Assembly: GCA_949743265.1 (NCBI GenBank)
Contig: CATJSX010000123.1
Coordinates: 1 to 13,020 of the forward strand
Length of the DNA: 13,020 bases
Reading direction: 5' to 3'
Origin: an uncultured Peptococcaceae bacterium
GTDB lineage: Bacteria; Bacillota; Peptococcia; Peptococcales; Peptococcaceae
Position 1 is the first letter of the stretch. The number at the start of each line of letters is the position of its first letter. Positions 1-13,020 of this stretch are shown here, piece by piece. The notes beneath the pieces are model-generated. The model had not been told where the DNA came from, did not search any database, and was given only the letters and a program-made list of their open reading frames with translations. The position numbers and the translations under genes are program-made.

Positions 1-1
1 C

Positions 2-769
2 TTATTAAAGCCAACATCGAAAAGTGAAGCAGGTTACCGGCTTTATGACGATAAAGCCCTAGAAAGGTTGCAACAGATTTTATTTTTTCGGGAATTTGAT
101 ATTCCGTTAAAGGAAATCAAATGGTTGATGGACGATCCCGACCTTGATCAACAGCAGATTTTGCAAACACAGCGAAAAATGTTTATCACCAAAAAAGAAC
201 GTTTGGAACGACTAACCACCATGATTGACAACATTCTGAAAGGAGAAAACAAAATGGACTTTGCCGTATTTACTAAAACAGAAATTGAAGCGCTTTGCCA
301 AACGACATTGGCACATATGTCGCAAGAAATGCGTCAGAATATCGAACGAGAATTTGGCAGCATTAACCAGTGGAGCAACCATTATCTGGAGCGTTGTCTT
401 AAAGAAGATGTACAAAGAGGGTATCAAAAAATGGTGGAATGGTACGGAGATAAAGAGACGCTGCTGAACTCTCCCGTTTATACAGCCAACGAAGCCATCG
501 GTACAGCGTTTGCCAATCGTATTAGCGATCTTGAAAAACGATTAAGCGCTAAAAAAATGCTGCCTGTCGATTCATTGGAAATTAAAAAATTGATTGGCGA
601 ATACGGTTTCGTCATCAAACAATTTTTTCAAGTTGATTGTGAAACAGAATTGATGACATCTGTGGCCGCCGCTTACCGAAATAAACAACAAATCATTGAC
701 CAGAAATATGGTGCGGGAAGTGCTGCATTTTTTGTTCAGGCTATCGAAACATTTTACAAGGCTAACTAA
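2..769 (+). CDS. MerR-family transcriptional regulator, 5'-truncated by the window edge. The window holds only the C-terminal effector domain (possibly TipAS-like); the HTH lies upstream.
   Basis: The reading frame is open from nt 2 with no start codon before the TTG at 68. The upstream in-frame peptide ...SEAGYRLYDDKALERLQQILFFREFDIPLKEIK matches the MerR dimerisation/linker motif (YRLYdd..l.rLqqIlffR.lgfsLkeI). Stop codon at 767-769. Confidence 0.7.
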   Translation, partial: LLKPTSKSEAGYRLYDDKALERLQQILFFREFDIPLKEIKWLMDDPDLDQQQILQTQRKMFITKKERLERLTTMIDNILKGENKMDFAVFTKTEIEALCQTTLAHMSQEMRQNIEREFGSINQWSNHYLERCLKEDVQRGYQKMVEWYGDKETLLNSPVYTANEAIGTAFANRISDLEKRLSAKKMLPVDSLEIKKLIGEYGFVIKQFFQVDCETELMTSVAAAYRNKQQIIDQKYGAGSAAFFVQAIETFYKAN

Positions 770-790
770 TTTAATTCTTTCTAAGACGTC

Positions 791-837
791 AAAAAGCGTA
801 TCAGTTACTGCCAAAACTGATACGCTTTTATTTTTAT
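791..837. terminator. Bidirectional intrinsic terminator between the convergent MerR-like and MFS genes
   Basis: Perfect 12-bp stem AGCGTATCAGTT (795-806) / AACTGATACGCT (815-826) with an 8-nt loop. An A5 run lies 5' and TTTTATTTTTAT lies 3'. Confidence 0.7.
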
Positions 838-2273
838 AATTCTGCTTTAGCTGATTGACGACGAGCTAACGCCGCTTCATCATCATGTACTTTAAAGAAG
901 GCGATTACTAACGCAATTAGTGCCAAAATAGTGCTGAACATAAACGCAGCGTGCATTCCTTCAACGGTGGCGTGGACTTCGCCCATTGTCATAGTAGCAG
1001 TCATGACAATAGTCATGATGGTGATCATGATTGCCGTTCCGATAGAGCCTGCCATTTGTCTGGCTGTATTATTAACAGCATTGCCATGGGCGACATAACG
1101 ATTATCCAGTGCGTTAATTCCCCATGTATTGATGGGCATATTGACCATAGACATGCCAAAAGAGCGAATACAAAAAATAGAGCACAAATAAAGTGCTGTA
1201 GAATTTTCTGTAAAGAAACAAAAACTAAAAGTGGTCACTGTCATGATGCTTAGACCAACCAGCGACATTTTGCGAGGCCCAAACCTATCGAACATCATAC
1301 CGCTAATAGGACTCATAATTCCCATAACAACAGCTCCCGGCATCATTATCAAGCCTGATTTTAAAGCGCTATAGCCCAATACGTTTTGTAAATAAATGGG
1401 AAAAATAACGGTGCCAGCGATCAAACCAGCGTTGATTACCATCGTTAAAATCGTAGCATAAGCAAAAATGGGCGTTTTCAAAACTCTTAATTCCAATAAG
1501 GGTTCTTCTAATACTAACTGTCGCTTAACATAAACTACTAGTGCAACTGCGCCAATGATTAGCGGCACGATAGTTGTCATGCTTCCCCAGCCATAGCTGC
1601 CGGCAGCGCTAAAACCGTATAATAACCCACCAAAAGCGAAGGTAGAAAGAATAACGGATATCCAATCTAATTTCGGATGGCGCACTTCGCCGACATTGCG
1701 TAAAAAGAAAAAAGCAAATAAAATATCTAAAGCCGCTAATGGCACAATGAGTCTAAAAATATAATGCCAACCCCATGCGTCAACAATCCAGCCGGAAAGC
1801 GTTGGACCGATAGCCGGAGCAAAAGATACGACGATTCCAACCAAACCCATTGCAATGCCGCGTTTTTCTTTAGGAAACAATAACATCATCACCACAGAGC
1901 CCAGCGGCATCTGAATACCAGCGCCTATGGCTTGAAAAATTCGAGCGGCTAACAAAATCGAAAAACTAGGTGCAAAAGCTGCCAGCGCTGTTCCTATGGT
2001 GAATATGCTCATGGAAAACATAAATAAAAAGCGCGTTGTAAAACGATCCACTAAATATGCCGTTACTGGCACCATAATGCCATTGACCAACATAAACGCT
2101 GTAGTTAACCATTGACCTTCGCTGGCATTAATATTGAATTGGCGCATAATGCTGGGTAAAGCTGGCGATAATACCGTTTGGTTGAGAATCGTCACAAAGC
2201 CGCCAGAAATAATGATTGCTACGATAAATAAATCTCGCCTAGAAATAAACGATTTATCATTGCTCATCAGCAT
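834..2273 (-). CDS. MFS transporter, DHA2 (EmrB/QacA-like, 14-TMS) drug:H+ antiporter family
   Basis: 479 aa, highly hydrophobic. The N-terminal motif LNQTVLSPALPSIMRQFNINASEGQWLTTAFMLVNGIMVPVTAYLVDRF is typical of DHA2. It overlaps the upstream marR by 17 nt, consistent with one operon. Confidence 0.88.
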   Translation of the reverse strand: MLMSNDKSFISRRDLFIVAIIISGGFVTILNQTVLSPALPSIMRQFNINASEGQWLTTAFMLVNGIMVPVTAYLVDRFTTRFLFMFSMSIFTIGTALAAFAPSFSILLAARIFQAIGAGIQMPLGSVVMMLLFPKEKRGIAMGLVGIVVSFAPAIGPTLSGWIVDAWGWHYIFRLIVPLAALDILFAFFFLRNVGEVRHPKLDWISVILSTFAFGGLLYGFSAAGSYGWGSMTTIVPLIIGAVALVVYVKRQLVLEEPLLELRVLKTPIFAYATILTMVINAGLIAGTVIFPIYLQNVLGYSALKSGLIMMPGAVVMGIMSPISGMMFDRFGPRKMSLVGLSIMTVTTFSFCFFTENSTALYLCSIFCIRSFGMSMVNMPINTWGINALDNRYVAHGNAVNNTARQMAGSIGTAIMITIMTIVMTATMTMGEVHATVEGMHAAFMFSTILALIALVIAFFKVHDDEAALARRQSAKAEL

Positions 2274-2754
2274 AACCTCCTTGATTATGTGGGCGTTTTA
2301 AAAGAAAATCGTGCAGACAAAAATTTTTTTCGTCGTTATTTTTGGCAATGTTATCAATCATGCGTGTCAAGAGTTTTTCTAAAGACTGTAAATCTTCTTC
2401 GCTAAAATCGCTGAAACAACAATTATCAAATTCATTGAGCAATTGACGACAGTTTTGTACTGCTTGTGTGCCTTCTTCGGTAATAAATAATTGATTGCAA
2501 CGCAAATTATGGGTGTCGACCTGCTTTTTCAAAAAGCCCGCTTTTTGCAGCCGTTTGGTGGAAGCTGCTACAGAAGCCGCTGAAATATGCAGATGCTCGG
2601 CAATATCATTTTGCATACATCCCGGATAAGCAACAATATATTCTAGGATTGGCAACTGTCCTTGATATAAGCCGGTCGCGGATGTCTGGCGCTGGATAAA
2701 AATTCCCCGCAGCGCCCAAAAAGTATTCATTTTTTTTAATAATGATTGTTGCAA
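2257..2754 (-). CDS. MarR-family transcriptional regulator, first gene of the marR-MFS operon
   Basis: 165 aa with a winged-HTH core (ILEYIVAYPGCMQNDIAEHLHISAASVAASTKRLQKAGFLKKQVDTHNLRCNQLFITEEG). Start is a TTG at 2754 with a GAGAGGA Shine-Dalgarno about 10 nt upstream. An alternative ATG lies 8 codons in, so the start is uncertain. Confidence 0.8.
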   Translation of the reverse strand: MQQSLLKKMNTFWALRGIFIQRQTSATGLYQGQLPILEYIVAYPGCMQNDIAEHLHISAASVAASTKRLQKAGFLKKQVDTHNLRCNQLFITEEGTQAVQNCRQLLNEFDNCCFSDFSEEDLQSLEKLLTRMIDNIAKNNDEKNFCLHDFLLKRPHNQGGYADEQ

Positions 2755-2789
2755 CGTGCATGTGTCCTCTCTTTATATTTAAACAGCTA

Positions 2790-2809
2790 ATAGTTAATTG
2801 ATTAAATAT
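2790..2809. promoter_or_regulatory. Imperfect 20-bp palindrome ATAgTTAATtgATTAAaTAT, candidate MarR operator overlapping the predicted transcription start of the marR-MFS operon
   Basis: 16 of 20 positions are self-complementary. It sits immediately downstream of the candidate -10 (CACAAT, 2810-2815 on the - strand), which is spaced 17 nt from a perfect TTGACA -35 (2833-2838 on the - strand). Confidence 0.4.
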
Positions 2810-2846
2810 ATTGTGACAGAATACACAAGATTTGTCAAGAGAATAA

Positions 2847-2864
2847 TTGATAAACGCTTATCAA
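2847..2864. promoter_or_regulatory. Perfect inverted repeat TTGATAA-ACGC-TTATCAA, a candidate regulator binding site
   Basis: Exact 7-4-7 palindrome read directly from the sequence. It lies 9 bp upstream of the predicted -35 of the marR-MFS promoter. Confidence 0.45.
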
Positions 2865-3035
2865 CAGAGGGATTGCTGCTAGCGGAGAGAGTATCATTAT
2901 TTTGGGCTGTTGTTATTTACTATATGCTTTGTTTGACAAATTTTTTTGCCTATTGAAGATTGGAGTTCTTTTCAAAAATAAAAAGCGGTTTCATCATATG
3001 ATGCGGTGTTTTGCTTTTTATTTGGTCATTTAACC

Positions 3036-3100
3036 AAAACCGTCACGCTCAAGAACGCAAAATATTTCTTGAGTGTGATGGTTTTTTAGTTGTTTTTTAT
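3036..3100. terminator. Bidirectional intrinsic terminator that ends the - strand ABC operon
   Basis: 20-nt stem AAAACCGTCACGCTCAAGAA (3036-3055) pairs with TTCTTGAGTGTGATGGTTTT (3066-3085) with two G-U wobbles. GGTTTTTTAGTTGTTTTTTATTTTATTT lies on the + side and an A-rich run followed by U-rich sequence on the - side. Confidence 0.65.
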
Positions 3101-3105
3101 TTTAT

Positions 3106-4902
3106 TTAGCCTGAAAATTGACTTTGATATAGTTGGTGATAAAATCCTTTTTGTGCCAAAAGACTTTGATGAGTGCCTGATTCAACAATACGACCATCGT
3201 TGACAACTAGTATTTGATCAGCGGTTTTAATGGTGCTGAGACGATGAGCGATAACAAAGCTGGTGCGTCCTTTCATTAGGCGTAACAGTGATTCTTGGAT
3301 CAACATTTCGGTGCGCGTATCGATAGAAGACGTAGCTTCGTCCAGAATTAAGAGTGCTGGATCAGCAAGAATCGCTCTGGCAATAGCAATTAGCTGGCGC
3401 TGTCCTTGCGAAAGATTTTGTCCGCCTTCAGTTAGTAGCGTGTGATAGCCTTGCTCTAACTGCATGATAAAATTATGGGCATTAGCCAGTTTAGCCGCTT
3501 CAATGACTTCTGCTTCCGTAGCGTTTAAACGTCCATAGCGAATATTATCCATAATAGATTCGCTGAAGAGAAAAGTATCTTGTAGTACGATACCAATAGC
3601 GCTGCGCAAACTTCGGCGAGTAATTTGGTCAATGTCTTGCCCATCAATGAGCAGTTCGCCGCCATTTTTGCGGTAAAAGCCGGTTAATAAACTAATGATA
3701 GTAGTTTTACCAGCACCAGTAGGACCAACGATAGCTACTGTTTGACCGGCTTTAACTGAAAAAGAGGCTTCTTTCAAGATCAATTGGTTTGGCGTATAGC
3801 CAAAATTTACTGAACGAGCCATAATATCGCCGCGGATAAAGGATAATTCTTGCGCTTGCTGCCAGTCTTTTTCTGGCGGTTCATCAATGATTTCAAAAAT
3901 CCGTTCAGCGCCGGCTAATGCTGATTGAATCGTATTGAATAAATCTGCCAACGAATTAAGCGGGCGAGAAAAGTTGCGCATATACAATAAGAAAGTGAAT
4001 ACAACGCCGACTGTCAAATGCCCTTGCATGATGAAGTATGCGCCTAAAAGAGTAATCAAAACGTAGATCAAGTTGTTGATAAAGGACATAAACGGTCCCA
4101 TAGCTGAGAAAGTTTGTGCCAAGGCAAAATTGCGTTGCAGTTTATCATTGATAGCTGCAAATTCCTTGGCGACATGTTTTTGCTGATGAAAAAGTAAGAC
4201 GACTTTGCTGCCGGAAATCATTTCTTCTATGTAGCCGTTTAATTGTCCCAAACTGCGCTGATATTGACTGAAATAGCGTCTTGACAATTTGATAATGATT
4301 TTACTGACCAATAGCGTTAACGGAATCACCAACATGGCGAATGCTGTTAAGCGTGGACTTAATATAACCATAGCAATAAACATGCCGCCGACATTAATGA
4401 CGCCGCTAAAAAACTGAGTAATATTTTGCGATAAAGTGGTATTAACATTATCAACATCGTTGGTCAGACGACTCATCAAATCGCCGCTGTTGTGTGTGTC
4501 AAAAAAAGTAAGAGGCAAAGTGAGCAGACGGTTAAATAGTTGACTGCGCAGTTGTGCCGAAATATTTTGCGCCATGTCAATCATCAGGAACTGCTGCGCA
4601 TAATTGGCGATAGTACTCAATAGATACATGATTAACATAATAACGCAAATGATGGCTAGGCCAGTCAAATCACCTGTCATGATGTAGTGATCGACAGCTA
4701 CACCACTTAAGCGAGTTCCTACAATTGTAATGATGGTTGAAATCGTTACAGCAAAAAATACAACTAACAGTCTTTTCCAGCTGTCTTGTAAATAATTCAG
4801 CAGTCGCCTGAATGTGCCTTTGCTATCTTGCGGTTTAATAGGGGCTTTGAGCCGCGCATTATGTTTGCCTGACGGCGCATGGGGCGGTTTGGGTCCCATC
4901 AT
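3106..4902 (-). CDS. ABC exporter permease/ATPase subunit (type I exporter, LmrD/YheH-like) carrying the consensus nucleotide-binding site
   Basis: Walker A GPTGAGKTT, signature LSQGQRQ (non-canonical), Walker B LILDEATS with catalytic Glu, H-loop VIAHRLST. The start is revised to the ATG at 4902. Evidence for the revised start: an AGGAGAGGAGG RBS 7 nt upstream and an ATGA overlap with the upstream gene's stop. The ORF-track start at 4956 is probably 18 codons too long. Confidence 0.88.
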   Translation of the reverse strand: MMGPKPPHAPSGKHNARLKAPIKPQDSKGTFRRLLNYLQDSWKRLLVVFFAVTISTIITIVGTRLSGVAVDHYIMTGDLTGLAIICVIMLIMYLLSTIANYAQQFLMIDMAQNISAQLRSQLFNRLLTLPLTFFDTHNSGDLMSRLTNDVDNVNTTLSQNITQFFSGVINVGGMFIAMVILSPRLTAFAMLVIPLTLLVSKIIIKLSRRYFSQYQRSLGQLNGYIEEMISGSKVVLLFHQQKHVAKEFAAINDKLQRNFALAQTFSAMGPFMSFINNLIYVLITLLGAYFIMQGHLTVGVVFTFLLYMRNFSRPLNSLADLFNTIQSALAGAERIFEIIDEPPEKDWQQAQELSFIRGDIMARSVNFGYTPNQLILKEASFSVKAGQTVAIVGPTGAGKTTIISLLTGFYRKNGGELLIDGQDIDQITRRSLRSAIGIVLQDTFLFSESIMDNIRYGRLNATEAEVIEAAKLANAHNFIMQLEQGYHTLLTEGGQNLSQGQRQLIAIARAILADPALLILDEATSSIDTRTEMLIQESLLRLMKGRTSFVIAHRLSTIKTADQILVVNDGRIVESGTHQSLLAQKGFYHQLYQSQFSG

Positions 4903-6614
4903 GATAACGCCTCCTCTCCTAGCTGCGAAGCACAAATAGTACGGTAAAGCGGGCAATGGGTTAATAATACTTCATGACGTCCTTGAGCCACTAAGCGGCC
5001 TTTCTCTAAAACCAAGATTAAATCAGCGTCTTTGATACTGTTAATGCGTTGAGCAATGATTATGGTAGTGGTTCCATGCTGGTTAGTCTTTAATCGTTTG
5101 TATAAAGCGGCTTCCGTTGCGAAGTCCAATGCGCTGGAAGCATCGTCAAGAATGAGGATTTTTGGCATTTTCAGCAATGTGCGTGCAATAGTTAAACGCT
5201 GTTTTTGACCGCCGGAGAAATTACTGCCTCGTTGTTCAACCAAATGACTCAATCCTTCCGTCGTCGCATATTCAGCGAAAGACGAAGCGATGAGCGCTTT
5301 TTTAAGCAGTTCATCATCGGCTTCTTGATTGCCAAAACGAAGATTATCGGCAACTGTGCCAGAAAAAAGAATATTCTCCTGTAAAACAACACCTACTAAT
5401 TCTGATAGTTTTTGCTGACTGAGTTGTTTAATATCTACGCCACCCAGCAAAATTTTACCATCGTCAACATCATATAAGCGAGCGCATAGTGCCGCCAACG
5501 TACTTTTGCCGCTGCCAGTAGGACCGATGACACCGACGCGCAAACCTTCTTTGAGCGTAAAAGAAATATCTTCCAATACCCATGCGCCGTGTTCATGGTA
5601 CTTAAAATAGACATGTTCAAATTGTAAGTCATAACCCTGCGGCTGCGTTGCTATAACGTTTTCAGCAAGGGCAGTTTTTACCGCCAAAACGTCATTGATA
5701 CGGTCAAGTGAAGCCTTGGCACGAGAAATCGACGTCATAATCATCATTGACATCATCAATGAGTGCATTACTTGCAAAATATAGGTGATAAATGCCATAA
5801 TTTTGCCGACTTCCAATAGTTGATACTGTACCAAAATGCCACCGAACCACAAAATAGCAATAATCGAAAGATTGATGATCAATGTCACTAACGGCGACAA
5901 AATAATCATTATGCGCTGAGCCTTGATACTCCACTGTCGTAAATCATCATTACATTGGGCAAATTTCTGTCTTTGACGATTTTCGGTTACAAATGCTTTG
6001 ATCATGCGAATGCCCAACAATGTTTCGCGAGAAACATTATTTAGGTTATCCAATTTTTCCTGCATGCCTTTGAAAATGCCGTTAGCACGCGTCAGCACTA
6101 CCAGCGCCAGTACAAAAACGAGCGGTATGGTTATTCCAAAAACAACTGATAATTGCGGGCTTAAACGATAGGCCATAAAAAGACCGCCAATACACAATAA
6201 CGGCGCTCTGACCAAAATTCGCTGACTGCTTAATAAAAGACTCTGTACTTGCGAAACGTCGTTCGTTAATCTTGTAATTAACGTCGAAGGCTGAAAATAA
6301 TCAATTTCCCGAAAAGAAAAGGTCTGAATATGGTCGAATAATCGCTGGCGCAATCGTCCTCCAGCAGCAGCTGTTGATTTTGCCGAAAAGAATAGACAGC
6401 CAAAGCCACCGATCAAGCCTAATATCGCCATGAATACCATTTGACCGCCTACTCGCAAAATATAAGCAGGATCATTGTTTCTGACGCCTATATCAATAAT
6501 ATCAGCCATTAGCGTTGGTTGATACAAATCGCAATAAACTTCCAAAATCATCAATAACGGTGCTAAAACAAAGAAAATTAAACTGCCTCGCATGGTTTGC
6601 CACAATGTTTTCAT
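4899..6614 (-). CDS. ABC exporter permease/ATPase subunit (LmrC/YheI-like) carrying the degenerate nucleotide-binding site
   Basis: Walker A GPTGSGKST, signature FSGGQKQR, Walker B ILILDDASS (Asp replaces the catalytic Glu), H-loop IIIAQRINS (Gln replaces His). RBS AAAGGAGAAG upstream of the ATG at 6614. Stop overlaps the next gene's start (ATGA). Confidence 0.88.
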   Translation of the reverse strand: MKTLWQTMRGSLIFFVLAPLLMILEVYCDLYQPTLMADIIDIGVRNNDPAYILRVGGQMVFMAILGLIGGFGCLFFSAKSTAAAGGRLRQRLFDHIQTFSFREIDYFQPSTLITRLTNDVSQVQSLLLSSQRILVRAPLLCIGGLFMAYRLSPQLSVVFGITIPLVFVLALVVLTRANGIFKGMQEKLDNLNNVSRETLLGIRMIKAFVTENRQRQKFAQCNDDLRQWSIKAQRIMIILSPLVTLIINLSIIAILWFGGILVQYQLLEVGKIMAFITYILQVMHSLMMSMMIMTSISRAKASLDRINDVLAVKTALAENVIATQPQGYDLQFEHVYFKYHEHGAWVLEDISFTLKEGLRVGVIGPTGSGKSTLAALCARLYDVDDGKILLGGVDIKQLSQQKLSELVGVVLQENILFSGTVADNLRFGNQEADDELLKKALIASSFAEYATTEGLSHLVEQRGSNFSGGQKQRLTIARTLLKMPKILILDDASSALDFATEAALYKRLKTNQHGTTTIIIAQRINSIKDADLILVLEKGRLVAQGRHEVLLTHCPLYRTICASQLGEEALS

Positions 6615-6746
6615 CAGGGCTTCTCCTTTCTCAAAAGAGGTTTTGTAATGACTGCTTAACTAACCGTTAACGCGGAAAAATTAGTTGGCTTTCTAATAGA
6701 GTAATGAATTTATCGGCAGAATATGATGCTAGAGTTTACCGATTAA

Positions 6747-6790
6747 ATTATACAAAACAATAGAGCTGCTGAAAACATTTTTTTCAAACG
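6747..6790 (-). promoter_or_regulatory. Candidate sigma-70 promoter of the ABC exporter operon
   Basis: Perfect TATAAT on the - strand (+ strand 6747-6752) with a TTTTCA -35-like hexamer 17 nt upstream. It implies a 5' UTR of about 130 nt. Confidence 0.35.
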
Positions 6791-6794
6791 AGCG

Positions 6795-6832
6795 CAATAA
6801 AAAAGAGACAAAAGCAATTTGCTTTTGTCTCT
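6795..6832 (-). terminator. Intrinsic terminator of the AP-superfamily gene
   Basis: 12-bp perfect stem AGAGACAAAAGC (6804-6815) / GCTTTTGTCTCT (6821-6832) with a 5-nt loop, followed on the - strand by UUUUUUAU (complement of the 6797-6804 A run). Confidence 0.7.
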
Positions 6833-6845
6833 AAAATTTATCATC

Positions 6846-8954
6846 TTACATAGTTTCGGTGAGAATCTGATAGACTGGAGCACCTTCACATTCTTTAGGA
6901 ATTTCAACGCCTAAAAGAACAGCAATAGTCGGCGCAACGTCTACTTCACGAATCCAGCGGTCGGTACGGTAATTCTTTTTGATTCCTTGACCAGCAGCAA
7001 AGAAAATAGGTGATAAAGAAGTATCGTTATAGCCTTGTGCCGTTGATAAACCGCTGCCATGTCCAACAGAATAATCGTCATGGACAAAACAAATAATATC
7101 GGCGCATAACGGACCGCCTAGTCCTAATAAAACAGCGTCTTTATTGTGTAGTGCCAGTGTAACGACACGATGACCTGTTTCAGGATCTTTTAAGCTGTAT
7201 AAATCCGTGATAACCCGTTCTTCCATTTCATATTTGTCTTCTGGTTCGACAATGCCATGGGGGTCTCTGCCTTTTAAGTTGATATAGATGCTACTGGAAC
7301 GAGTTTGGAAAGCCGTTGTCTTGCTCCAATCAACTTCTCTCATTTCATTGCCGTCAGCATCGCGTTTTAATACGGTGTAGCCAAATTGACGCAATGGATC
7401 AGCATTAACAAAACTAGTGTCGCCCATGCAGCGGGAACCATCGTTTTCACAGCAGTTCAAGCCATGGTCGGAGCAGACGATGATAGTCCAGCCTTCATCT
7501 AAATAATGCAGAAAAGAACCCAGATATTCATCAGTGGTTTGATAGGTTGCTTCTGCAAATTTGACCACTTCGCTTTCGTCATAACGGGAAGTAGGACGAT
7601 TCTTCATATATTTGATATAGTTGTGTGTTTGTAAATCAACATTATGATAATGAGAGAAAACAGCTTCTATGCCTTTTTCTTTGATAAGATACTGCATGCA
7701 ATCGGATTGCCATTTAGCAGCCATACGCCATTGTTCGTTATTACATTTCATAATCAAATCGGCATCGTTGCCGCTCATTTGGCTAGTTGGTGTTGGCGGA
7801 CCGAATAAATCAGTCAGTTCTTTGTGTAAAGATTTTGGGAAAAATACGCTGTCATCATTGCAGAGCATACCACAAGAAGCCCATATACGGACATAAGTAC
7901 CATCTTCAGCAACTTCTAATAGGCGCATATTGCGAGTAACTTTTGCTTCGCCTTGTGGCGTTGGGATAGTGTCATACACATGATCGGTAAAGACGTCGTT
8001 TTCTAAGATGACGATTTCTTTTTCGGTTTGTTTGTCTTTATAAATAGCCACGCGATCGTATTTGCCATTTTCATTTGGTAAAATCAACGCATAACGGATA
8101 ACTTTGCCGGATAAAAGTTGAATCATAAATTCTTTGCTGTTAGCAGGAATCTCAAATGCCCAATCTTCTGGCTCAGAAATTGGCGACATGGAACAACTAA
8201 TGCACCAATCTTCGACAGTCCACTGTACATGCTGATCTTCATCAGTGATAACGTCACACGAAACATAGCTGCTTTCAACTTTATAGCCGGGAACGTTAAT
8301 GAATTCTTCGTATTCTTTTCTGTATTTAGCAGCTTTTTCTGCCATTTCTTTGCCGCCTTTCTTTAAAGAACGGCGTCTTGGCCAAGTATAAGCTTTTAAT
8401 TCTTCGTCACCTTTTAAATCTGTTATAGGTGTGGATTTTATTTTATAGACAGGTTCTTTGGTTAAAGTGCTGGCAATAATAGCGGTGTCATCATCACATT
8501 TAGAACACCAACCGCAGCATGCGCCCGGGCTGGAACCGTCAATGGTGTATAAATTGTCGCTTTCGATAGATGGTGGGAAACTGCCGCCCGGCCAATGAAA
8601 GACTAAAGTTTTGATTCCTGCTTGTGCTGTAACGTTGAAAATAGGTTCTGCTTTCAAAAAGCGGGAAGAAAAAGCGCCTAAAGCAACATCTTTATCGGGA
8701 TCAGCTGAAATATTGTAGTCAGTGATACCGTGTGTCATAGGATAGCAGCCTGTTGCCAAAGTTGCCCATAATGGAGGCGTAATCGTTGGGTTTGCACCTA
8801 ATAACATTAAATCATCGCGGCAAGCGCCTGCATCAATCAATTTTTGGATGTTAGGTAATTTTCCTTCGTTTAACAAACGTTTGGTGAAACGAGGATCCAT
8901 ACCGTCTATCCCCAATACCATCAGTTTGTTGGTCAATCCTTTGTTTCTCAGCAT
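6846..8954 (-). CDS. Alkaline-phosphatase-superfamily protein, nucleotide pyrophosphatase/phosphodiesterase (NPP, type I phosphodiesterase)-like, 702 aa, no signal peptide
   Basis: N-terminal LMVLGIDGMDPRF...LGANPTITPPLWATLATGCYPMTHGITDY matches the NPP metal-ligand and Thr-nucleophile motif (fPTvTfPnh..l.TGlyPe.HGI). The C-terminal GHGSG...DVAPTIAVLLGVEIP matches the distal metal-site motif. RBS GAGGAGAG 7 nt upstream of the ATG. Confidence 0.78.
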   Translation of the reverse strand: MLRNKGLTNKLMVLGIDGMDPRFTKRLLNEGKLPNIQKLIDAGACRDDLMLLGANPTITPPLWATLATGCYPMTHGITDYNISADPDKDVALGAFSSRFLKAEPIFNVTAQAGIKTLVFHWPGGSFPPSIESDNLYTIDGSSPGACCGWCSKCDDDTAIIASTLTKEPVYKIKSTPITDLKGDEELKAYTWPRRRSLKKGGKEMAEKAAKYRKEYEEFINVPGYKVESSYVSCDVITDEDQHVQWTVEDWCISCSMSPISEPEDWAFEIPANSKEFMIQLLSGKVIRYALILPNENGKYDRVAIYKDKQTEKEIVILENDVFTDHVYDTIPTPQGEAKVTRNMRLLEVAEDGTYVRIWASCGMLCNDDSVFFPKSLHKELTDLFGPPTPTSQMSGNDADLIMKCNNEQWRMAAKWQSDCMQYLIKEKGIEAVFSHYHNVDLQTHNYIKYMKNRPTSRYDESEVVKFAEATYQTTDEYLGSFLHYLDEGWTIIVCSDHGLNCCENDGSRCMGDTSFVNADPLRQFGYTVLKRDADGNEMREVDWSKTTAFQTRSSSIYINLKGRDPHGIVEPEDKYEMEERVITDLYSLKDPETGHRVVTLALHNKDAVLLGLGGPLCADIICFVHDDYSVGHGSGLSTAQGYNDTSLSPIFFAAGQGIKKNYRTDRWIREVDVAPTIAVLLGVEIPKECEGAPVYQILTETM

Positions 8955-9013
8955 AATACCACTCTCCTCATAAAATCATTTTAATTCAGTGTGTGCATAG
9001 AACACAGAGTATC

Positions 9014-9050
9014 ATTATATGATAACTGTGCTGGGCAAGCAATAAATACT
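9014..9050 (-). promoter_or_regulatory. Candidate promoter of the AP-superfamily gene
   Basis: Perfect TATAAT on the - strand (+ strand 9014-9019) with a weak TTGCTT -35 17 nt upstream. Gives a 5' UTR of about 55 nt. Confidence 0.3.
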
Positions 9051-9322
9051 ATATATATAATATACAACTAATTCAAAATAAAATCTAATAACTATTTTAA
9101 GGCTTTTTTCAATAAGTAATAACCAATGATTATATGAATGTGGAATATTTGCCATTATCTGCTAAAGATGATTAAGCAACAACGGGTTAACAGTTATTTT
9201 TTGCTAGTTAGTCGTATTTATTTTTGGAGCTGAGAAGAAATTTTTTAAGTTCGCAACTTTTTTGTCATGATAAATAAAAATAACAGTGGTAAACTATGGT
9301 TAAAACGAAAGAGAGATGAACA

Positions 9323-10558
9323 ATGATGCAAATTATTGACAGCGAAAAAATTCGTCGACCTATCAAAATATGGGTTGACGATATGAATCATATTGAAGAA
9401 AGTTGTTTAGAGCAAGCCTATCATTTAGCCAATTTGCCTTTTATTTATCAATGGGTGGCATTGATGCCAGATACGCATACAGGAATGGGTATGCCTATTG
9501 GCGGTGTTATTGCCTGTCAGGATGTGATTATTCCTCATGCAGTGGGCAATGATATTGGTTGTGGCATGGCGTATATTAGTACCGATGTGCCGGCAGAACT
9601 TTTAACGGAGATTATCACGCCCAATGGCACACTGTTACAAGCAATAGTCGGTGATATCTTGCGCAATATTCCCGTAGGTTTTGCACATCACAAAACGGAT
9701 CAGCCTTCAGAAGTACTTGCAAAAGCGTCGCAAAATCCATCATTGTCTTTGAGCCGCCAAAGTGATTTATTGCCAGAGATTGAGGCGGCTTATCGGCAGA
9801 TTGGAACTTTGGGCGGTGGTAATCATTTTATTGAACTGCAAAAAGATGAAGCCGGCTATTTGGCGATTATGCTTCATTCAGGCAGTCGCCGTTTGGGCAA
9901 AGAAATATGTCATTATTTTAATCAACTGGCGAAAATGCTTAACGCACGCTGGCATACTAAAGTACCGGAGGAGTATGGTTTGCCGTTTTTGCCGATTGAC
10001 AGCGAAGAAGGGCAAGCGTATTTGGCGTGGATGACCTTAGCGTTAGATTTTGCTGAGGAAAATCGAGCCGTTATGTTAGAAAAAGTAAAACAGATTATCG
10101 AAAAATGGCTGGAAAAAATGGCGATTCCTATTCACTGGCAGGAAAATATTAACTGTCATCATAATTATGCTGCTTTGGAACATCATTATGGCCGCGATGT
10201 GTGGGTTCACCGCAAGGGAGCCACCAGCGCTCAACTTGGTCAATTAGCTATTATCCCCGGAGCAATGGGCAGTTTTAGCTATATAGTGGAAGGACTAGGC
10301 AATGCAGAAAGTTTTTGTTCATCTTCTCATGGTGCCGGTCGGCTATATTCTCGTAAAGGCGCTATGAAGGCTTTTTCTCAAGAAGAAGTCATAGTGGATT
10401 TAAAAAAACAAGGCGTTGTCTTAGGCAAACATCATAAAACGGATATTGCCGAAGAAAGCCGCTTTGCTTATAAAAATATTGAAGAAGTCATGGCTTTGCA
10501 AAATGATTTGGTTATTATCAAAAAACGATTGCAAACCATGGGCGTCATCAAGGGTTAA
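9323..10558 (+). CDS. rtcB: RtcB-family RNA 3'-phosphate/2',3'-cyclic-phosphate ligase
   Basis: 411 aa. All hallmark RtcB metal and GTP-binding motifs are present: MPDTHTGMG, GNDIGCGM, GGGNHFIEL, HHNYA, VHRKGATSA, PGAMGSFSY, SSSHGAGR. RBS AAAGAGAGA upstream of tandem ATG ATG. Confidence 0.92.
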   Translation: MMQIIDSEKIRRPIKIWVDDMNHIEESCLEQAYHLANLPFIYQWVALMPDTHTGMGMPIGGVIACQDVIIPHAVGNDIGCGMAYISTDVPAELLTEIITPNGTLLQAIVGDILRNIPVGFAHHKTDQPSEVLAKASQNPSLSLSRQSDLLPEIEAAYRQIGTLGGGNHFIELQKDEAGYLAIMLHSGSRRLGKEICHYFNQLAKMLNARWHTKVPEEYGLPFLPIDSEEGQAYLAWMTLALDFAEENRAVMLEKVKQIIEKWLEKMAIPIHWQENINCHHNYAALEHHYGRDVWVHRKGATSAQLGQLAIIPGAMGSFSYIVEGLGNAESFCSSSHGAGRLYSRKGAMKAFSQEEVIVDLKKQGVVLGKHHKTDIAEESRFAYKNIEEVMALQNDLVIIKKRLQTMGVIKG

Positions 10559-10567
10559 TTTGATATT

Positions 10568-10596
10568 TTGACTTCTTTATTCAAGAAGTGATGATA
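10568..10596 (+). promoter_or_regulatory. Possible sigma-70 promoter for the downstream ncRNA
   Basis: TTGACT -35 (10568-10573) with only weak -10 candidates (ATGATA/TGATAT) 17-18 nt downstream. Read-through from rtcB is equally possible because no terminator follows the rtcB stop. Confidence 0.2.
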
Positions 10597-10689
10597 TACC
10601 AGAACCGAAATTTTCTATATCAGGCATTTTGTATCTGCCGATGGTGCAGTCGGGTTTTACCCGTTGCTGTATGCCGAAAAAATTGGTTC

Positions 10690-10825
10690 AAAAAGAAGAT
10701 TGAAGGTTCGAGTCCTTCACTGTCAAAAGACAGTTGGCGAAACGGTTAACGCAAATGTAGAAGATGTGTTGATGGTTCGAGTCCATCACTGCAAAAGGCA
10801 GTTAGCGTAATTGGTAGCGCGATCT
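10690..10825 (+). ncRNA. Two tandem diverged tRNA-elbow-mimic modules (T-arm, capped acceptor-like helix, D-arm-like hairpin), a candidate Y-RNA/YrlA-like structured ncRNA
   Basis: Module A (10703-10752): GAAGG-TTCGAGT-CCTTC, ACTGTC-AAAA-GACAGT, GCG-AAACGGTTAA-CGC. Module B (10771-10820): GATGG-TTCGAGT-CCATC, ACTGC-AAAAG-GCAGT, GCGT-AATTGGTA-GCGC. The T-loop is identical to the tRNA consensus GGTTCGAnTCC. The module B D-arm differs by one nt from the canonical GCTCAGTTGGTAGAGC. A compensatory A:T to T:A change keeps the T-stem intact between copies, and helix changes are also compensated in the acceptor-like hairpin. Confidence 0.55.
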
Positions 10826-10888
10826 TGAAGTGACCAGTACAGTCATGAATCACATTATCCTAAGCAAAAGGATACCCACAACTATTCA

Positions 10889-10915
10889 TCGGCAAGGCGA
10901 GCCGACAGATTTTTT
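10889..10915 (+). terminator. Weak intrinsic terminator candidate after the tRNA-like ncRNA
   Basis: TCGGC-AAGGCGA-GCCGA 5-bp stem followed by CAGA and T6. A second small hairpin GACGC...GCGTC lies at 10916-10937. Confidence 0.35.
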
Positions 10916-11041
10916 GACGCAAAAGCAATATAGCGTCAAAACAATCGCGCGGCACCGAAAAAATGACCAGCAGAAGATAGGATACCGTTTAAAACCGTTT
11001 TTTGCCAGATAAAGAGCAGGGCTTTATTCCGCAAAAGCGCG

Positions 11042-11050
11042 TGTTAAACT
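11042..11050 (+). promoter_or_regulatory. Candidate extended -10 promoter (TGtTAAACT) for the repeat+SPFH gene
   Basis: TGnTAAACT motif about 78 nt upstream of the ATG, with a poor -35 (TTTATT). A strong RBS AAAAGGAGG lies 7 nt before the ATG at 11128. Confidence 0.25.
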
Positions 11051-11127
11051 AAATATCATCTCCGTCATTTCTTTGGTGCCAAACCGATGAATAACGATTT
11101 TTCCCTCAATTAAAAGGAGGTTTTTAT

Positions 11128-12657
11128 ATGTCAATGATTACAGAGCAGCAAGTCGGTATTTTAAGCAAAAACGGACGGTTCCAAAAAGTTTTAACCGCCG
11201 GTAAATACTATTATCCTCAAATTTTAGGCTATCAATTGGAAATTATTGAGGCAAATGGATTGGTACAGCCTCAATCTGTACCGCTGGCTATTTTAGCGAA
11301 AGATCCTAATTTTTGTCGCCTGACTGCTATGGTTGAAATAACGGATACAACATTAGCCGCTCATTACAAAGATGGATGCTTGTCAGAAATCATTTATACG
11401 TCTGGTCGGTATTATTATTGGAATATTTTACAAGATCATAGTTTCTTGCTGATAAGTTTAACGACGCCTGATATTGCTCAAGAAGTACCGTTGTCGTTGT
11501 TTGATCATATCAACAAACAATTTTTTATAGAGATTAACGTTGCCGAAGGCGAAGGGGCATTGGTGTACTTTGATAATAAATTAGAAAGATTATTAACCAA
11601 CGGTCATTATTATTTCTGGAATTATCTTACAAAAGTAACTTATAAGATTATTACGCTGAATTCACCCTTTATTTCTTGTGTGTCGCAAGGATTGGAAGCG
11701 GAATTATTAGCGGATCATCCTGCTATTGCTGAAAAGCTCGCCGTAATAGATGTGCCTGATGGCAACATTATGTTGCACTATGTCAATGAACGTTTGCTGG
11801 ATGCTTTGCCCAGCGGTTGGTATGGCTATTGGCAAACAAGCGGCGACCATACTTTTCGTTTGCTGGATATTACTGATGCGGAAAGTGCCAATACATTAGG
11901 CGACGAAAGCGAAACCATTTTTCGGGTAGTGAATGAAAAATGGTATGATCGTTATGACGTCGCTTCCGGTGAAGTCGGTTTGTTATATCGTGATAATGTG
12001 TTGATTAAGACACTTCCCAGCGGACGCTATTATTTTTGGCGGTATCGTGAGAAAATTACGCTGGAAATTTACGATTTGCGTTTGCAGCCATTAGATATTA
12101 CGGGTCAGGAGATATTAACTAATGATAAAGTAATGGTTCGTTTGAATTTTACCTGTACATATAGAATCGACGACCCTGTTGCCTTGGCTTCTGGTTTGCA
12201 AAATTACGCCAGTCAGTTATATACGTTCGTTCAGCTGGTGTTGCGAGAATATATCGGTCAGTATAAATTAGATGAACTGTTAGCGCAAAAAGAGCAGATT
12301 GCTTCTAAAGTATTGGCATTGTTGCAGGAACAGAATAAATTTGCTCTGACGTTTGTTAGCGCTGGGCTAAAGGATATTATTTTGCCCGGTGATGTTCGGG
12401 AGATTATGAATACTGTGCTTTTGGCAGAAAAGAAAGCCCAAGCCAATGTCATTACTCGACGTGAAGAAGTGGCTTCCACACGCAGTCTTTTGAATACGGC
12501 TAAATTGATGGACGAAAATCACACGCTTTATAAATTGAAAGAATTGGAGTATTTGGAGCGCATCTGTGATAGCGTCGGTTCAATTTCTGTTAGTGGCGGC
12601 GGGGATTTATTAGGACAATTGGAGCGTTTATTAGTAAGCAAAAAAACAGAAGAATAA
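11128..12657 (+). CDS. Soluble SPFH/band-7-domain protein with five N-terminal tandem ~67-aa beta-rich repeats
   Basis: The C-terminal region (aa ~280-480) fits the SPFH pattern: ...LEIYDLRLQPLDITGQEILTNDKVMVRLNFTCTYRIDDP...YKLDELLAQKEQIASKV...AGLKDIILPGDVREIMNTVLLAEKKAQANV. Five repeats share G-x-h-x-h-Y-x-[DN]-x-x-L-x3-L-x2-G-x-YY-x-W with the YY at aa 27, 95, 161, 232 and 301. Repeat 5 is the native SPFH N-terminal beta-segment. No hydrophobic TM segment is present. Confidence 0.85.
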   Translation: MSMITEQQVGILSKNGRFQKVLTAGKYYYPQILGYQLEIIEANGLVQPQSVPLAILAKDPNFCRLTAMVEITDTTLAAHYKDGCLSEIIYTSGRYYYWNILQDHSFLLISLTTPDIAQEVPLSLFDHINKQFFIEINVAEGEGALVYFDNKLERLLTNGHYYFWNYLTKVTYKIITLNSPFISCVSQGLEAELLADHPAIAEKLAVIDVPDGNIMLHYVNERLLDALPSGWYGYWQTSGDHTFRLLDITDAESANTLGDESETIFRVVNEKWYDRYDVASGEVGLLYRDNVLIKTLPSGRYYFWRYREKITLEIYDLRLQPLDITGQEILTNDKVMVRLNFTCTYRIDDPVALASGLQNYASQLYTFVQLVLREYIGQYKLDELLAQKEQIASKVLALLQEQNKFALTFVSAGLKDIILPGDVREIMNTVLLAEKKAQANVITRREEVASTRSLLNTAKLMDENHTLYKLKELEYLERICDSVGSISVSGGGDLLGQLERLLVSKKTEE

Positions 12658-12661
12658 AATG

Positions 12662-12698
12662 AAAAAAAGCGGTAGGAGAGAATCCTGTCGCTTTTTTT
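12662..12698. terminator. Bidirectional intrinsic terminator after the repeat+SPFH gene, shared with the convergent LysR-like gene
   Basis: A7 run, then nested stems AGCG...CGCT and AGGA...TCCT (12668-12692), then T7. Confidence 0.7.
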
Positions 12699-12701
12699 CA
12701 T

Positions 12702-13020
12702 TTAAGATAATGCATAATATTGTTTGGTGAAATTTACAAACGCTTCTCCCGCCGGTGTCAAGGAAGCATTTTGGGCGATAGCTAAACAGACGGTAAAATT
12801 TAAGTCTTCGCGAAACTCTATGGTTGCTAGAGAAGAAGAAGGCAGTGAAGCGACATTTTCGCCATGGATGATTTTCGTAGAAATGCCTATTCCTTGTCCA
12901 TTGGCAGGGGCTTGCGTATACAGTAGAAAATTATTAGTACTGTAAGATATATTATAGGCGCCGAAACTTGCAAACAATCGCAAGAGGATATCGTCTTCAT
13001 CTTGCGGTTGTGGTTTCAGC
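12702..13020 (-). CDS. LysR-family-like transcriptional regulator, C-terminal end only; the gene continues past the window end
   Basis: The - strand frame is open to nt 13019 (LKPQPQDEDDILL before the TTG). The C-terminal peptide ...GQGIGISTKIIHGENVASLP...FTVCLAIAQNASLTPAGEAFVNF resembles a LysR substrate-binding-domain C-terminus (GIallP...l.w.k..lspa.raFidf). The overlapping + strand 73-aa ORF has no RBS or support. Confidence 0.45.
   Translation of the reverse strand, partial: LKPQPQDEDDILLRLFASFGAYNISYSTNNFLLYTQAPANGQGIGISTKIIHGENVASLPSSSLATIEFREDLNFTVCLAIAQNASLTPAGEAFVNFTKQYYALS

Follow-up and report, generated by a model that had tools for sequence, protein, structure and literature searches.

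Why tRNA-like RNAs accompany bacterial RNA-repair ligases, even in the case of Salmonella YrlA, is an open question in the field, and it is raised by the gap between rtcB and the gene for an SPFH/Band-7 protein in an uncultured Peptococcaceae bacterium (GenBank assembly GCA_949743265.1, contig CATJSX010000123.1, positions 1 to 13,020 of the forward strand). This whole stretch of 13,020 nucleotides (nt) is referred to here as the window. An earlier note, made from the sequence alone, had seen in this gap two tandem mimics of the tRNA elbow immediately downstream of rtcB, and had proposed them as a candidate bacterial Y RNA of the YrlA class. The analysis presented here makes it probable that the element is the non-coding RNA (ncRNA) component of an RtcB/Band-7 (SPFH) RNA-repair cassette, with two tandem YrlA-type elbow mimics lying inside a larger structured transcript. 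What the analysis shows directly is the structure of the element, together with covariation, conservation and a strict genomic linkage to the Band-7 gene.

Two tandem tRNA-like modules

The gap, 569 nt in length, contains two diverged direct copies of ~69 nt each (modules A and B, Table 1), both on the + strand and both composed of a T-arm, a capped acceptor-like hairpin and a D-arm, just as the earlier note had placed them. The order of these parts is that of a tRNA opened at the place of the anticodon stem, which corresponds to the YrlA-type elbow mimic that had been proposed, with Rfam aligning the core. Both copies carry the tRNA identity elements U8, A14, G18-G19, T54-Psi55-C56 and A58, the 15:48 pair is A:U in each, and the 5-nt linker of module B (GTGTT) occupies the place of the tRNA variable loop. 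When module B is folded alone, the minimum free energy (MFE) structure is exactly the proposed four-helix structure, and module A folded alone gives three hairpins. The 11-mer GGTTCGAGTCC is found twice in the window, the copies lying 69 nt apart, compared with a mean of 0.07 in shuffles (0 of 200 shuffles reach two copies); Tandem Repeats Finder reported no repeat, because the copies are too diverged.

Two details of the earlier comparison stand in part. The D-arm of module B had been described as one nt from the canonical sequence, which is correct for the loop (one base), but the whole 16-mer departs from GCTCAGTTGGTAGAGC at four positions, with two stem changes that are paired. Of the compensatory changes proposed between the copies, the replacement of A-U by U-A in the T-stem is genuine, whereas the acceptor-like helices differ by the gain or loss of a whole base pair, with no substitution.

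Position 10753, the purine-26 equivalent that follows the D-arm of module A, is A in the window and G in ten other contigs of the same species, and is the sole difference across the 569-nt intergenic region. The sequence AAGAT occurs twice, once 5' of each module (10695-10699 and 10761-10765), with a single ATCTT partner (10822-10826), so that mutually exclusive closing stems could enclose either module B alone or both modules, an arrangement also seen in the related locus L091; the AGAAGAT 5' of module A and its counterpart at module B could be rivals for ATCTT. The short repeats CCGAAAAAAT and AGAAGAT had led to a search for a third, degenerate module at 10825-11135, which was rejected, the best match reaching 4 bits.

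Table 1. Positions of the genes, tRNA-like modules and flanking elements in the window.
Feature	Position	Strand	Detail
rtcB (RNA 3'-phosphate/5'-OH ligase), 411 aa	9323-10558	+	Pfam RtcB, E = 2e-109
P1 hairpin	10563-10597	+	starts five bases after rtcB stop; inverted repeat, paired in MFE fold
5' block: GGUGC, variable hairpin, GUAUGCCG	10643-10676	+	same place upstream of module in relatives
tRNA-like module A	10689-10761	+	R1 68.3 bits (in R1 training set); T-arm, capped acceptor-like hairpin, D-arm; no closing stem
T-arm, module A	10702-10718	+	GAAGG-TTCGAGT-CCTTC
Capped acceptor-like hairpin, module A	10719-10734	+	ACTGTC-AAAA-GACAGT
D-arm, module A	10737-10752	+	GCGA-AACGGTTA-ACGC; 3 bp + A.A
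tRNA-like module B	10758-10829	+	R1 80.4 bits (in R1 training set); Rfam YrlA 35.3 bits; four helices including closing stem
Closing stem, module B	AAGAT 10761-10765 / ATCTT 10822-10826	+	5 bp, at place of tRNA anticodon stem
T-arm, module B	10771-10787	+	GATGG-TTCGAGT-CCATC
Capped acceptor-like hairpin, module B	10788-10802	+	ACTGC-AAAAG-GCAGT
D-arm, module B	10805-10820	+	GCGT-AATTGGTA-GCGC
Post-module hairpin, 5 bp + 7-nt loop	10830-10846	+	GUGAC-CAGUACA-GUCAU
Hairpin AUCC-UAAGCAAAA-GGAU	10857-10873	+	pairwise alignment with L091 (AUCC-GCAAA-GGAU); two lineages only
Intrinsic-terminator-like hairpin + U run	10889-10915	+	terminator scan
GGAUACCG block in Band-7 leader	10980-10987	+	123-148 nt upstream of Band-7 start
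Band-7 leader stem around CCAGA...UUCC	11000-11005 / 11031-11036	+	3' of GGAUACCG
SPFH/Band-7 (slipin-type), 509 aa	11128-12657	+	Pfam Band_7, E = 2e-28; PDB stomatin matches

Helix covariation and linkage to the Band-7 gene

Genome and metagenome collections were searched with RtcB as the anchor and exact proteins were looked up, giving a set of 184 related loci, denoted here by L numbers, and a covariance model (R1) was built from nine modules, those of the window included. Eighteen modules, drawn from 15 loci in four phyla, were aligned with MAFFT. Standard pairs make up 95.3% of the pair cells (shuffles 65%, slid partners 31-48%), 17 of the 20 pairs change on either side, both members included, and the covariation score is 0.74 (shuffles 0.18, slid partners 0.05-0.16). 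The tertiary 15:48 (Levitt) pair also covaries, being G:C in 12 modules, A:U in five and U:G in one. By these measures the helices of the module are conserved and under selection. This is consistent with the earlier note, which had read selection on RNA structure from the two copies alone and had named helix conservation in orthologous loci as a check, with both R1 modules and covarying helices now found in such loci.

The closest RtcB outside the species of the window, at 69% identity, is that of L091, where two tandem modules score 60.8 and 78.9 bits with R1. Module B is ~95% identical between the two loci, with compensatory differences in module A in both the T-stem (GAAGG/CCTTC in the window, GGAGG/CCTCC in L091) and the acceptor-like helix (ACTGTC/GACAGT and GCCA/TGGC respectively). 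Module A of L091 retains a 7-bp closing stem (GGAAAUA/UAUUUCC), whereas the window is short of 4 nt per side there and has lost the closing stem of module A. One module is found with R1 in many Lachnospiraceae loci (L001-3, L098-L130, L095/96, L177 and L180), and also in the distant Band-7 loci of Glaciecola amylolytica (L065, 49.4 bits), a Bacteroidota metagenome-assembled genome (L021, 49.1 bits) and L184 (46.3 bits). Among relatives, tandem duplication is common only to the window and L091 and looks lineage-specific; the two modules probably arose by such a duplication, with the helices retained in both copies afterwards. The module tolerates tandem duplication, its helices being intact in both copies.

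The earlier note had placed the RNA beside rtcB, and whilst this adjacency stands, the informative neighbour is the downstream Band-7 gene, which the RNA tracks. The Band-7 subfamily occurs in 60 of 185 loci. Of 14 independent Band-7 lineages, 13 have an R1 module on the strand of the Band-7 gene and no more than ~600 nt upstream of it, with scores mostly of 41-80 bits (22-26 bits in L181 and L183). Full-length Band-7 orthologues of 35-65% identity stand beside the same RNA in L091, L095, L001-3, L180, L065 and L021, with the orthologues spanning Bacillota, Gammaproteobacteria and Bacteroidota. The triad of RNA, Band-7 and rtcB recurs in L091, L095/96, L001-3, L180, L065, L021, L181 and L183, in the order rtcB-RNA-Band-7 in the window, L091, L095, L001-3 and L180, and in the order RNA-Band-7-rtcB in L065 (Glaciecola), L021 (Bacteroidota), L181 and L183; in L184 the RNA lies upstream of Band-7 although rtcB is not adjacent. 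The RNA tracks the Band-7 gene even with rtcB on the other side or absent, rtcB being usually adjacent. RtcB loci with neither Band-7 nor Rsr give only weak R1 matches over adjacent tRNA genes, of 32 bits at most. Furthermore, internal deletions 3' of rtcB remove or damage the module in strains close to L001 (L118, L119, L125, L126, L128, L144 and L145), with the Band-7 match truncated in L118, L119, L128, L144 and L145 and none found in L125 and L126, which suggests that the RNA and its partner gene decayed together.

Modules are also seen with other neighbours. In L066, a Planctomycetota locus, the module (R1 41.1 bits) lies between Rsr (vWA_Ro60/TROVE) and rtcA-rtcB, with an Rfam YrlA score of 68.2 bits and a full outer stem. 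In L179 (5353-7616) the module (R1 53.1 bits) follows a 715-aa protein unrelated to Band-7, for which no Pfam or PDB match was obtained and which may represent a further, third type of protein partner. From its occurrence beside Band-7, Rsr and the 715-aa gene, the module type would serve at least two, perhaps three, protein partners. In L179 a NYN + OST-HTH gene precedes rtcB. Searches of plasmid and phage collections with the window RNA (blastn), and of IMG/VR viral contigs with the Band-7 family, gave no match.

The Band-7 protein of the window consists of two copies of a ~130-aa N-terminal unit followed by the SPFH domain. The unit has a recurring G-x-Y-Y-F-W motif and is present once in most relatives, twice in the window, L091, L182, L183 and L184, and three times in L181. 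A correspondence between the number of units and the number of RNA modules, as in the window and L091 (two and two), fails as a rule, with three units and one module in L181, two and one in L183, two and none in L182, and in L095 one unit with one module and a mini tRNA-like element. This second, mini element follows the single permuted module in L095 (7445-7500) and L096 (7472-7527) and is in standard order, with a 6-bp stem (TGTGGA/TCCACA) around TTTTGGTAA, a GGGA-GCAA-TCCC hairpin and a GGGG-TTCGAAT-CCCC T-arm.

Comparison with tRNA, YrlA and the predicted Band-7 system

The modules share with canonical tRNA (RF00005) the T-arm, the D-arm, residues U8, A14, G18-G19, T54-C56 and A58, a 5-nt variable-loop-like linker and the Levitt pair, with the closing stem at the place of the anticodon stem, but the module's acceptor consists of a 4-6 bp hairpin closed by a loop, and free 5'/3' ends, CCA and an anticodon loop are all absent. 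That the element is not an ordinary tRNA gene, as the earlier note held, is supported by ARAGORN, which finds no tRNA genes in the window, and by the Rfam tRNA model, which matches 10731-10791 at 26.3 bits (gathering score 29 bits) only as a hybrid in which the module A D-arm is combined with the module B T-arm. At gathering thresholds Rfam reports nothing in the window, and in 11 related loci it reports no YrlA, the sole match being a tRNA of 30.7 bits in L091 that is again composed of the module A D-arm and the module B T-arm. Save for this hybrid match, none of the Band-7-linked RNAs is called a tRNA by ARAGORN or Rfam. With scores under the thresholds of both Rfam and tRNA finders, the RNA escapes standard annotation; a covariance model made for it would pick it up.

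For positions 10686-10850, the fold energies are -36.2 kcal/mol for the tandem modules, -30.5 kcal/mol for one outer stem around both modules, -22.4 kcal/mol for the hybrid cloverleaf and -46.2 kcal/mol for the unconstrained MFE fold, which makes use of non-conserved pairings. A central cloverleaf tRNA between the modules was rejected, being 13.8 kcal/mol less stable than the tandem fold, with an inter-module acceptor of only 4 bp in the window and with two mismatches in seven in L091; it is impossible in single-module relatives, and the local acceptor-like hairpins covary instead.

The near-tRNA formed by the module A D-arm and the module B T-arm, with its scores either side of the gathering value in the window and L091, would suit a reading in which the modules are a substrate or processing signal, cut by RNase P, RNase Z or a toxin and resealed by RtcB, thereby punctuating or stabilising the rtcB 3' untranslated region or reporting tRNA damage. 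This would also be in keeping with Mycobacterium smegmatis YrlA, which is cut by RNase P and receives CCA (PMC4201824), and with the hairpin directly 3' of the rtcB stop, which suggests co-transcription. However, the capped 4-6 bp acceptor-like helix and the T-stem together give 10-11 stacked pairs, compared with 12 in tRNA, Salmonella YrlA is cleaved neither by RNase P (PMC4201824) nor by anticodon nuclease (PMC7790460), and the hybrid cloverleaf meets the objections of stability and of single-module relatives given above, making this reading decidedly improbable.

The absence of any report from ARAGORN and the Rfam gathering thresholds would also be expected of decaying tandem tRNA genes, or of a chance resemblance, without function, and adjacent tRNA genes can imitate a YrlA-like match (Chen et al., PMC4201824), as seen here at the tRNA arrays of L039 and L042. 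This explanation is hardly credible, with the sequence from T-arm to D-arm being self-complementary and covarying as a hairpin, unlike tRNA spacers, with conservation over four phyla in which the linkage to Band-7 is kept, and with the helices of both copies maintained via compensatory change.

The proposal of a YrlA-like Y RNA holds for the type of module. The window RNA and YrlA have in common the permuted order of stem, variable-loop-like linker, T-arm, capped acceptor-like stem-loop, D-arm and stem, the conserved T-loop and D-loop nucleotides, the covariation of G15:C48 with A15:U48, which is documented for YrlA by Chen et al. 2014 (PMC4201824), and an rtcB neighbour, with window-type modules aligning column for column with the Rsr-linked YrlA of L066. 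In E-value mode on 10540-11130 (a 591-nt search), Rfam YrlA (RF02553, gathering score 69 bits) matches 10742-10840 at 35.3 bits (E = 5e-6), the alignment covering the T/acceptor-like/D core only and leaving the outer YrlA helices unmatched.

This core match and the column-for-column alignment with the L066 RNA would be explained by a bona fide Y RNA bound by a Ro60/Rsr protein encoded elsewhere in the genome, yet several observations make this very improbable. The score is approximately half that of a full YrlA (35 compared with 68-69 bits, the latter including the Rsr-linked L066 RNA), the window RNA has no long 5'/3' terminal stem, and the Ro60-binding motif GNCGAAN0-1G, present in L066 as GGCGAAUG, is not found within 150 nt upstream of the window modules (background 0.09 per 150 nt). 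As the earlier note had stated, no TROVE match is found in the window; nor is a TROVE/Rsr gene found within 10 kb on ten longer contigs of the same species, or a TROVE gene near the RNA in any of the 14 sampled Band-7 lineages, and tblastn with the Rsr protein among 185 loci matches only L066 and a fragment in L038. By comparison, the best YrlA matches in published surveys lie within 4 kb of rsr (PMC4201824). The window RNA further differs from YrlA in its two tandem modules within one intergenic region, its SPFH/Band-7 partner gene and its extra conserved 5' and 3' elements outside the YrlA model. The module is of the YrlA type but the RNA is very probably not a Ro-type Y RNA, and the earlier proposal is not supported in its Ro60-binding sense. 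Ro60 would not be needed, the elbow module being under selection beside a wholly different partner, an SPFH/Band-7 protein, in at least three phyla with the Band-7 arrangement.

Deinococcus Yrn1 and the metazoan Y RNAs are similar in being small RNAs that take part in RNA surveillance together with a protein that forms a ring or cage, with Yrn1 also possessing a T-arm (PMC4201824). However, the bulged Ro60-binding helix that defines these RNAs, built from their 5' and 3' termini, is absent in the window RNA, and the metazoan Y RNAs are without a tRNA-like domain.

A closer precedent for the gene arrangement is the prediction made by Burroughs and Aravind in 2016, as related in bioRxiv 10.1101/312249, that in some bacteria RtcB stands beside a Band-7 protein and a strongly tRNA-like ncRNA termed "b7a-tRNA", with YrlA occasionally placed next to Band-7 in the same prediction. 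That account gives these predictions as lacking experimental validation, and, the original 2016 definition aside, no further literature on b7a-tRNA was found beyond it. Since a system of RtcB, Band-7 and tRNA-like RNA has already been predicted in print, the window, which likewise places an intergenic tRNA-like ncRNA in one neighbourhood with RtcB and a Band-7/SPFH protein, can be regarded as a member of that system in so far as the preprint describes it. The b7a-tRNA is described there, second-hand, as strongly resembling authentic tRNA, whereas the Band-7-linked RNAs examined here are all permuted; the window RNA is arguably a variant of the predicted system. Cultured carriers are found among the loci (Eisenbergiella porci, Lacrimispora sp. 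and Glaciecola amylolytica), so the Band-7 branch of the 2016 prediction is directly testable.

Flanking elements and action in cis or in trans

The modules are accompanied on both sides by further elements, whose pairings were read by eye from the sequences and are less secure than those of the modules. RNAalifold returned no structure on MAFFT alignments of the 5' block and the Band-7 leader, because the automatic alignments were out of register. The A/U-rich lower stem of P1 ends in a conserved ATATAC, and its upper stem covaries (CUUCUU/AAGAAG in the window, CCUGC/GCAGG in L091, GGC/GCC in L095 and AAGC/GCUU in L177). A weak sigma-70-like match (TTGACT, 16 nt, GATGAT) overlaps P1, but a promoter inside P1 was not adopted, since the upper stem covaries as an RNA hairpin, which suggests a transcription start upstream of P1. 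The 5' block is present in all sampled Bacillota Band-7 loci (window, L091, L095/96, L001-3, L177, L180, L183 and L184), and at the base of its hairpin GUGC can pair with GUAU, as GCGC with GUGU in L002 and GUGCC with GGCAU in L003.

Downstream, the post-module stem covaries at the same position (AUGAC/GUCAU in L091, CAGAC/GUCUG in L095, GACAU/AUGUC in L001, GACAC/GUGUC in L180 and AACAU/AUGUU in L003). The terminator-like hairpin that follows may mark where a discrete RNA ends at its 3' side, or may act as an attenuator, with analogous hairpin and T-run sites in the AT-rich L091 and L177 and none evident in GC-rich relatives. Further 3', the distance of GGAUACCG from the Band-7 start is kept in six lineages (window, L091 at 7698, L177 at 5543, L021 at 1659, L181 at 3374 and L183 at 3378), the adjoining leader stem covaries in four lineages (UUUUGC/GCAAAA, AGCCGC/GCGGCU, AUAAAUGC/GCAUUUAU and CAGAGC/GCUUUG), and the region 10916-11127 folds with z = -4.25. 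The modules appear to form part of a larger region, conserved and structured, which takes up the 569-nt gap and looks lineage-specific.

These elements bear on the main rival explanation, in which the RNA acts in cis as the leader of the Band-7 mRNA, with the modules forming a sensor bound by a tRNA-recognising factor or by Band-7/RtcB, and the 10889-10915 hairpin with the structured leader at 10951-11080 setting how much transcription or translation reaches Band-7. Wherever rtcB is placed, the RNA is found directly upstream of Band-7 and on its strand, a terminator-like hairpin lies 3' of the modules in the window, L091 and L177, GGAUACCG and its covarying hairpin keep a near-constant distance from the Band-7 start, and the leader is strongly structured, all of which would be expected of such a role. 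In contrast, the same type of module occurs beside Rsr in L066 as a known trans-acting RNA and also after the unrelated 715-aa gene of L179, no alternative anti-terminator pairing was identified, and the GC-rich relatives are without an obvious terminator. We regard such a cis-acting leader as unlikely, noting that roles in cis and in trans are not mutually exclusive.

The reading that we favour, that of an ncRNA component of an RtcB/Band-7 repair cassette, can be put as a tentative mechanism. Transcription of the RNA, upstream of the Band-7 gene, would accompany that of rtcB or follow it directly, and each module would fold into a tRNA-like L-shaped corner in which the T-arm and D-arm dock by the usual tRNA tertiary contacts. 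By analogy with YrlA and Ro60, the RNA may bind the oligomeric Band-7 protein, the complex displaying tRNA look-alikes; transcription, protein binding and function are what we infer here. The look-alikes could gather tRNA-recognising factors (RtcB and enzymes that modify or process tRNA) around damaged tRNAs, or they could serve as decoys or competitive inhibitors of tRNA-cleaving toxins. Both options have counterparts in YrlA, the tRNA-like domain of which is modified by TruB and DusA (PMC4201824) and has been proposed as an effector-binding domain or nuclease decoy (10.1101/312249; PMC7790460), with a decoy role against anticodon nuclease suggested in PMC7790460.

Several observations weigh against this reading. 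No module was detected by R1 in L182, one of the 14 Band-7 lineages, and the modules of L181 and L183 are weak or without a D-arm. Some strains of a related species have lost the RNA, which can therefore be done without under some conditions at least. Within the window, module A is without a closing stem, and the unconstrained MFE fold (-46.2 kcal/mol) favours other long-range pairings over the tandem model (-36.2 kcal/mol). Additionally, the position of the terminator-like hairpin between the modules and the leader elements would allow for one RNA or for two, and for action in trans or in cis.

A more elaborate form of the cassette reading is speculative and, in our estimation, rather doubtful. 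In this form P1, the GGUGC-hairpin-GUAUGCCG block, one or two elbow modules, the 5-bp/7-nt hairpin, and GGAUACCG with its covarying hairpin would make up a composite RNA of several hundred nt, forming a particle with the oligomeric SPFH protein, with two elbows per RNA in this lineage, as a Ro60-independent, vault-like counterpart of the Ro/Y-RNA particle for tRNA repair or toxin protection. The shoulder domain of the major vault protein (MVP) is SPFH-like, and the likeness to the vault particle (MVP and vault RNA), which is an analogy only, lies in the genetic pairing of an SPFH-fold oligomeric protein with a small structured RNA. There is, however, no sequence relationship. If such a composite particle existed, tRNA repair or the shielding of tRNAs from toxins would be its dedicated task.

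Other genes recur around the cassette. A pair of genes (~415 and ~330 aa) lies beside it in most Clostridia loci (L001-L003, L095, L096 and L177-L181), upstream of rtcB or Band-7, with weak WYL/WCX matches for the members tested in L001, L003, L095 and L181; in the window and L091 no such pair flanks rtcB. In L181 (5433-7435) and L183 (5004-7010) the order is Band-7, RtcB and RlaP (PF10127 nucleotidyltransferase), which ties the cassette to another RNA-repair component. In the Acidobacteriota loci L039, L040 and L042, five to nine tRNA genes are arrayed directly upstream of rtcB, with weak false R1 matches (at most 32 bits) at the adjacent tRNAs, and L160 gives the same weak matches.

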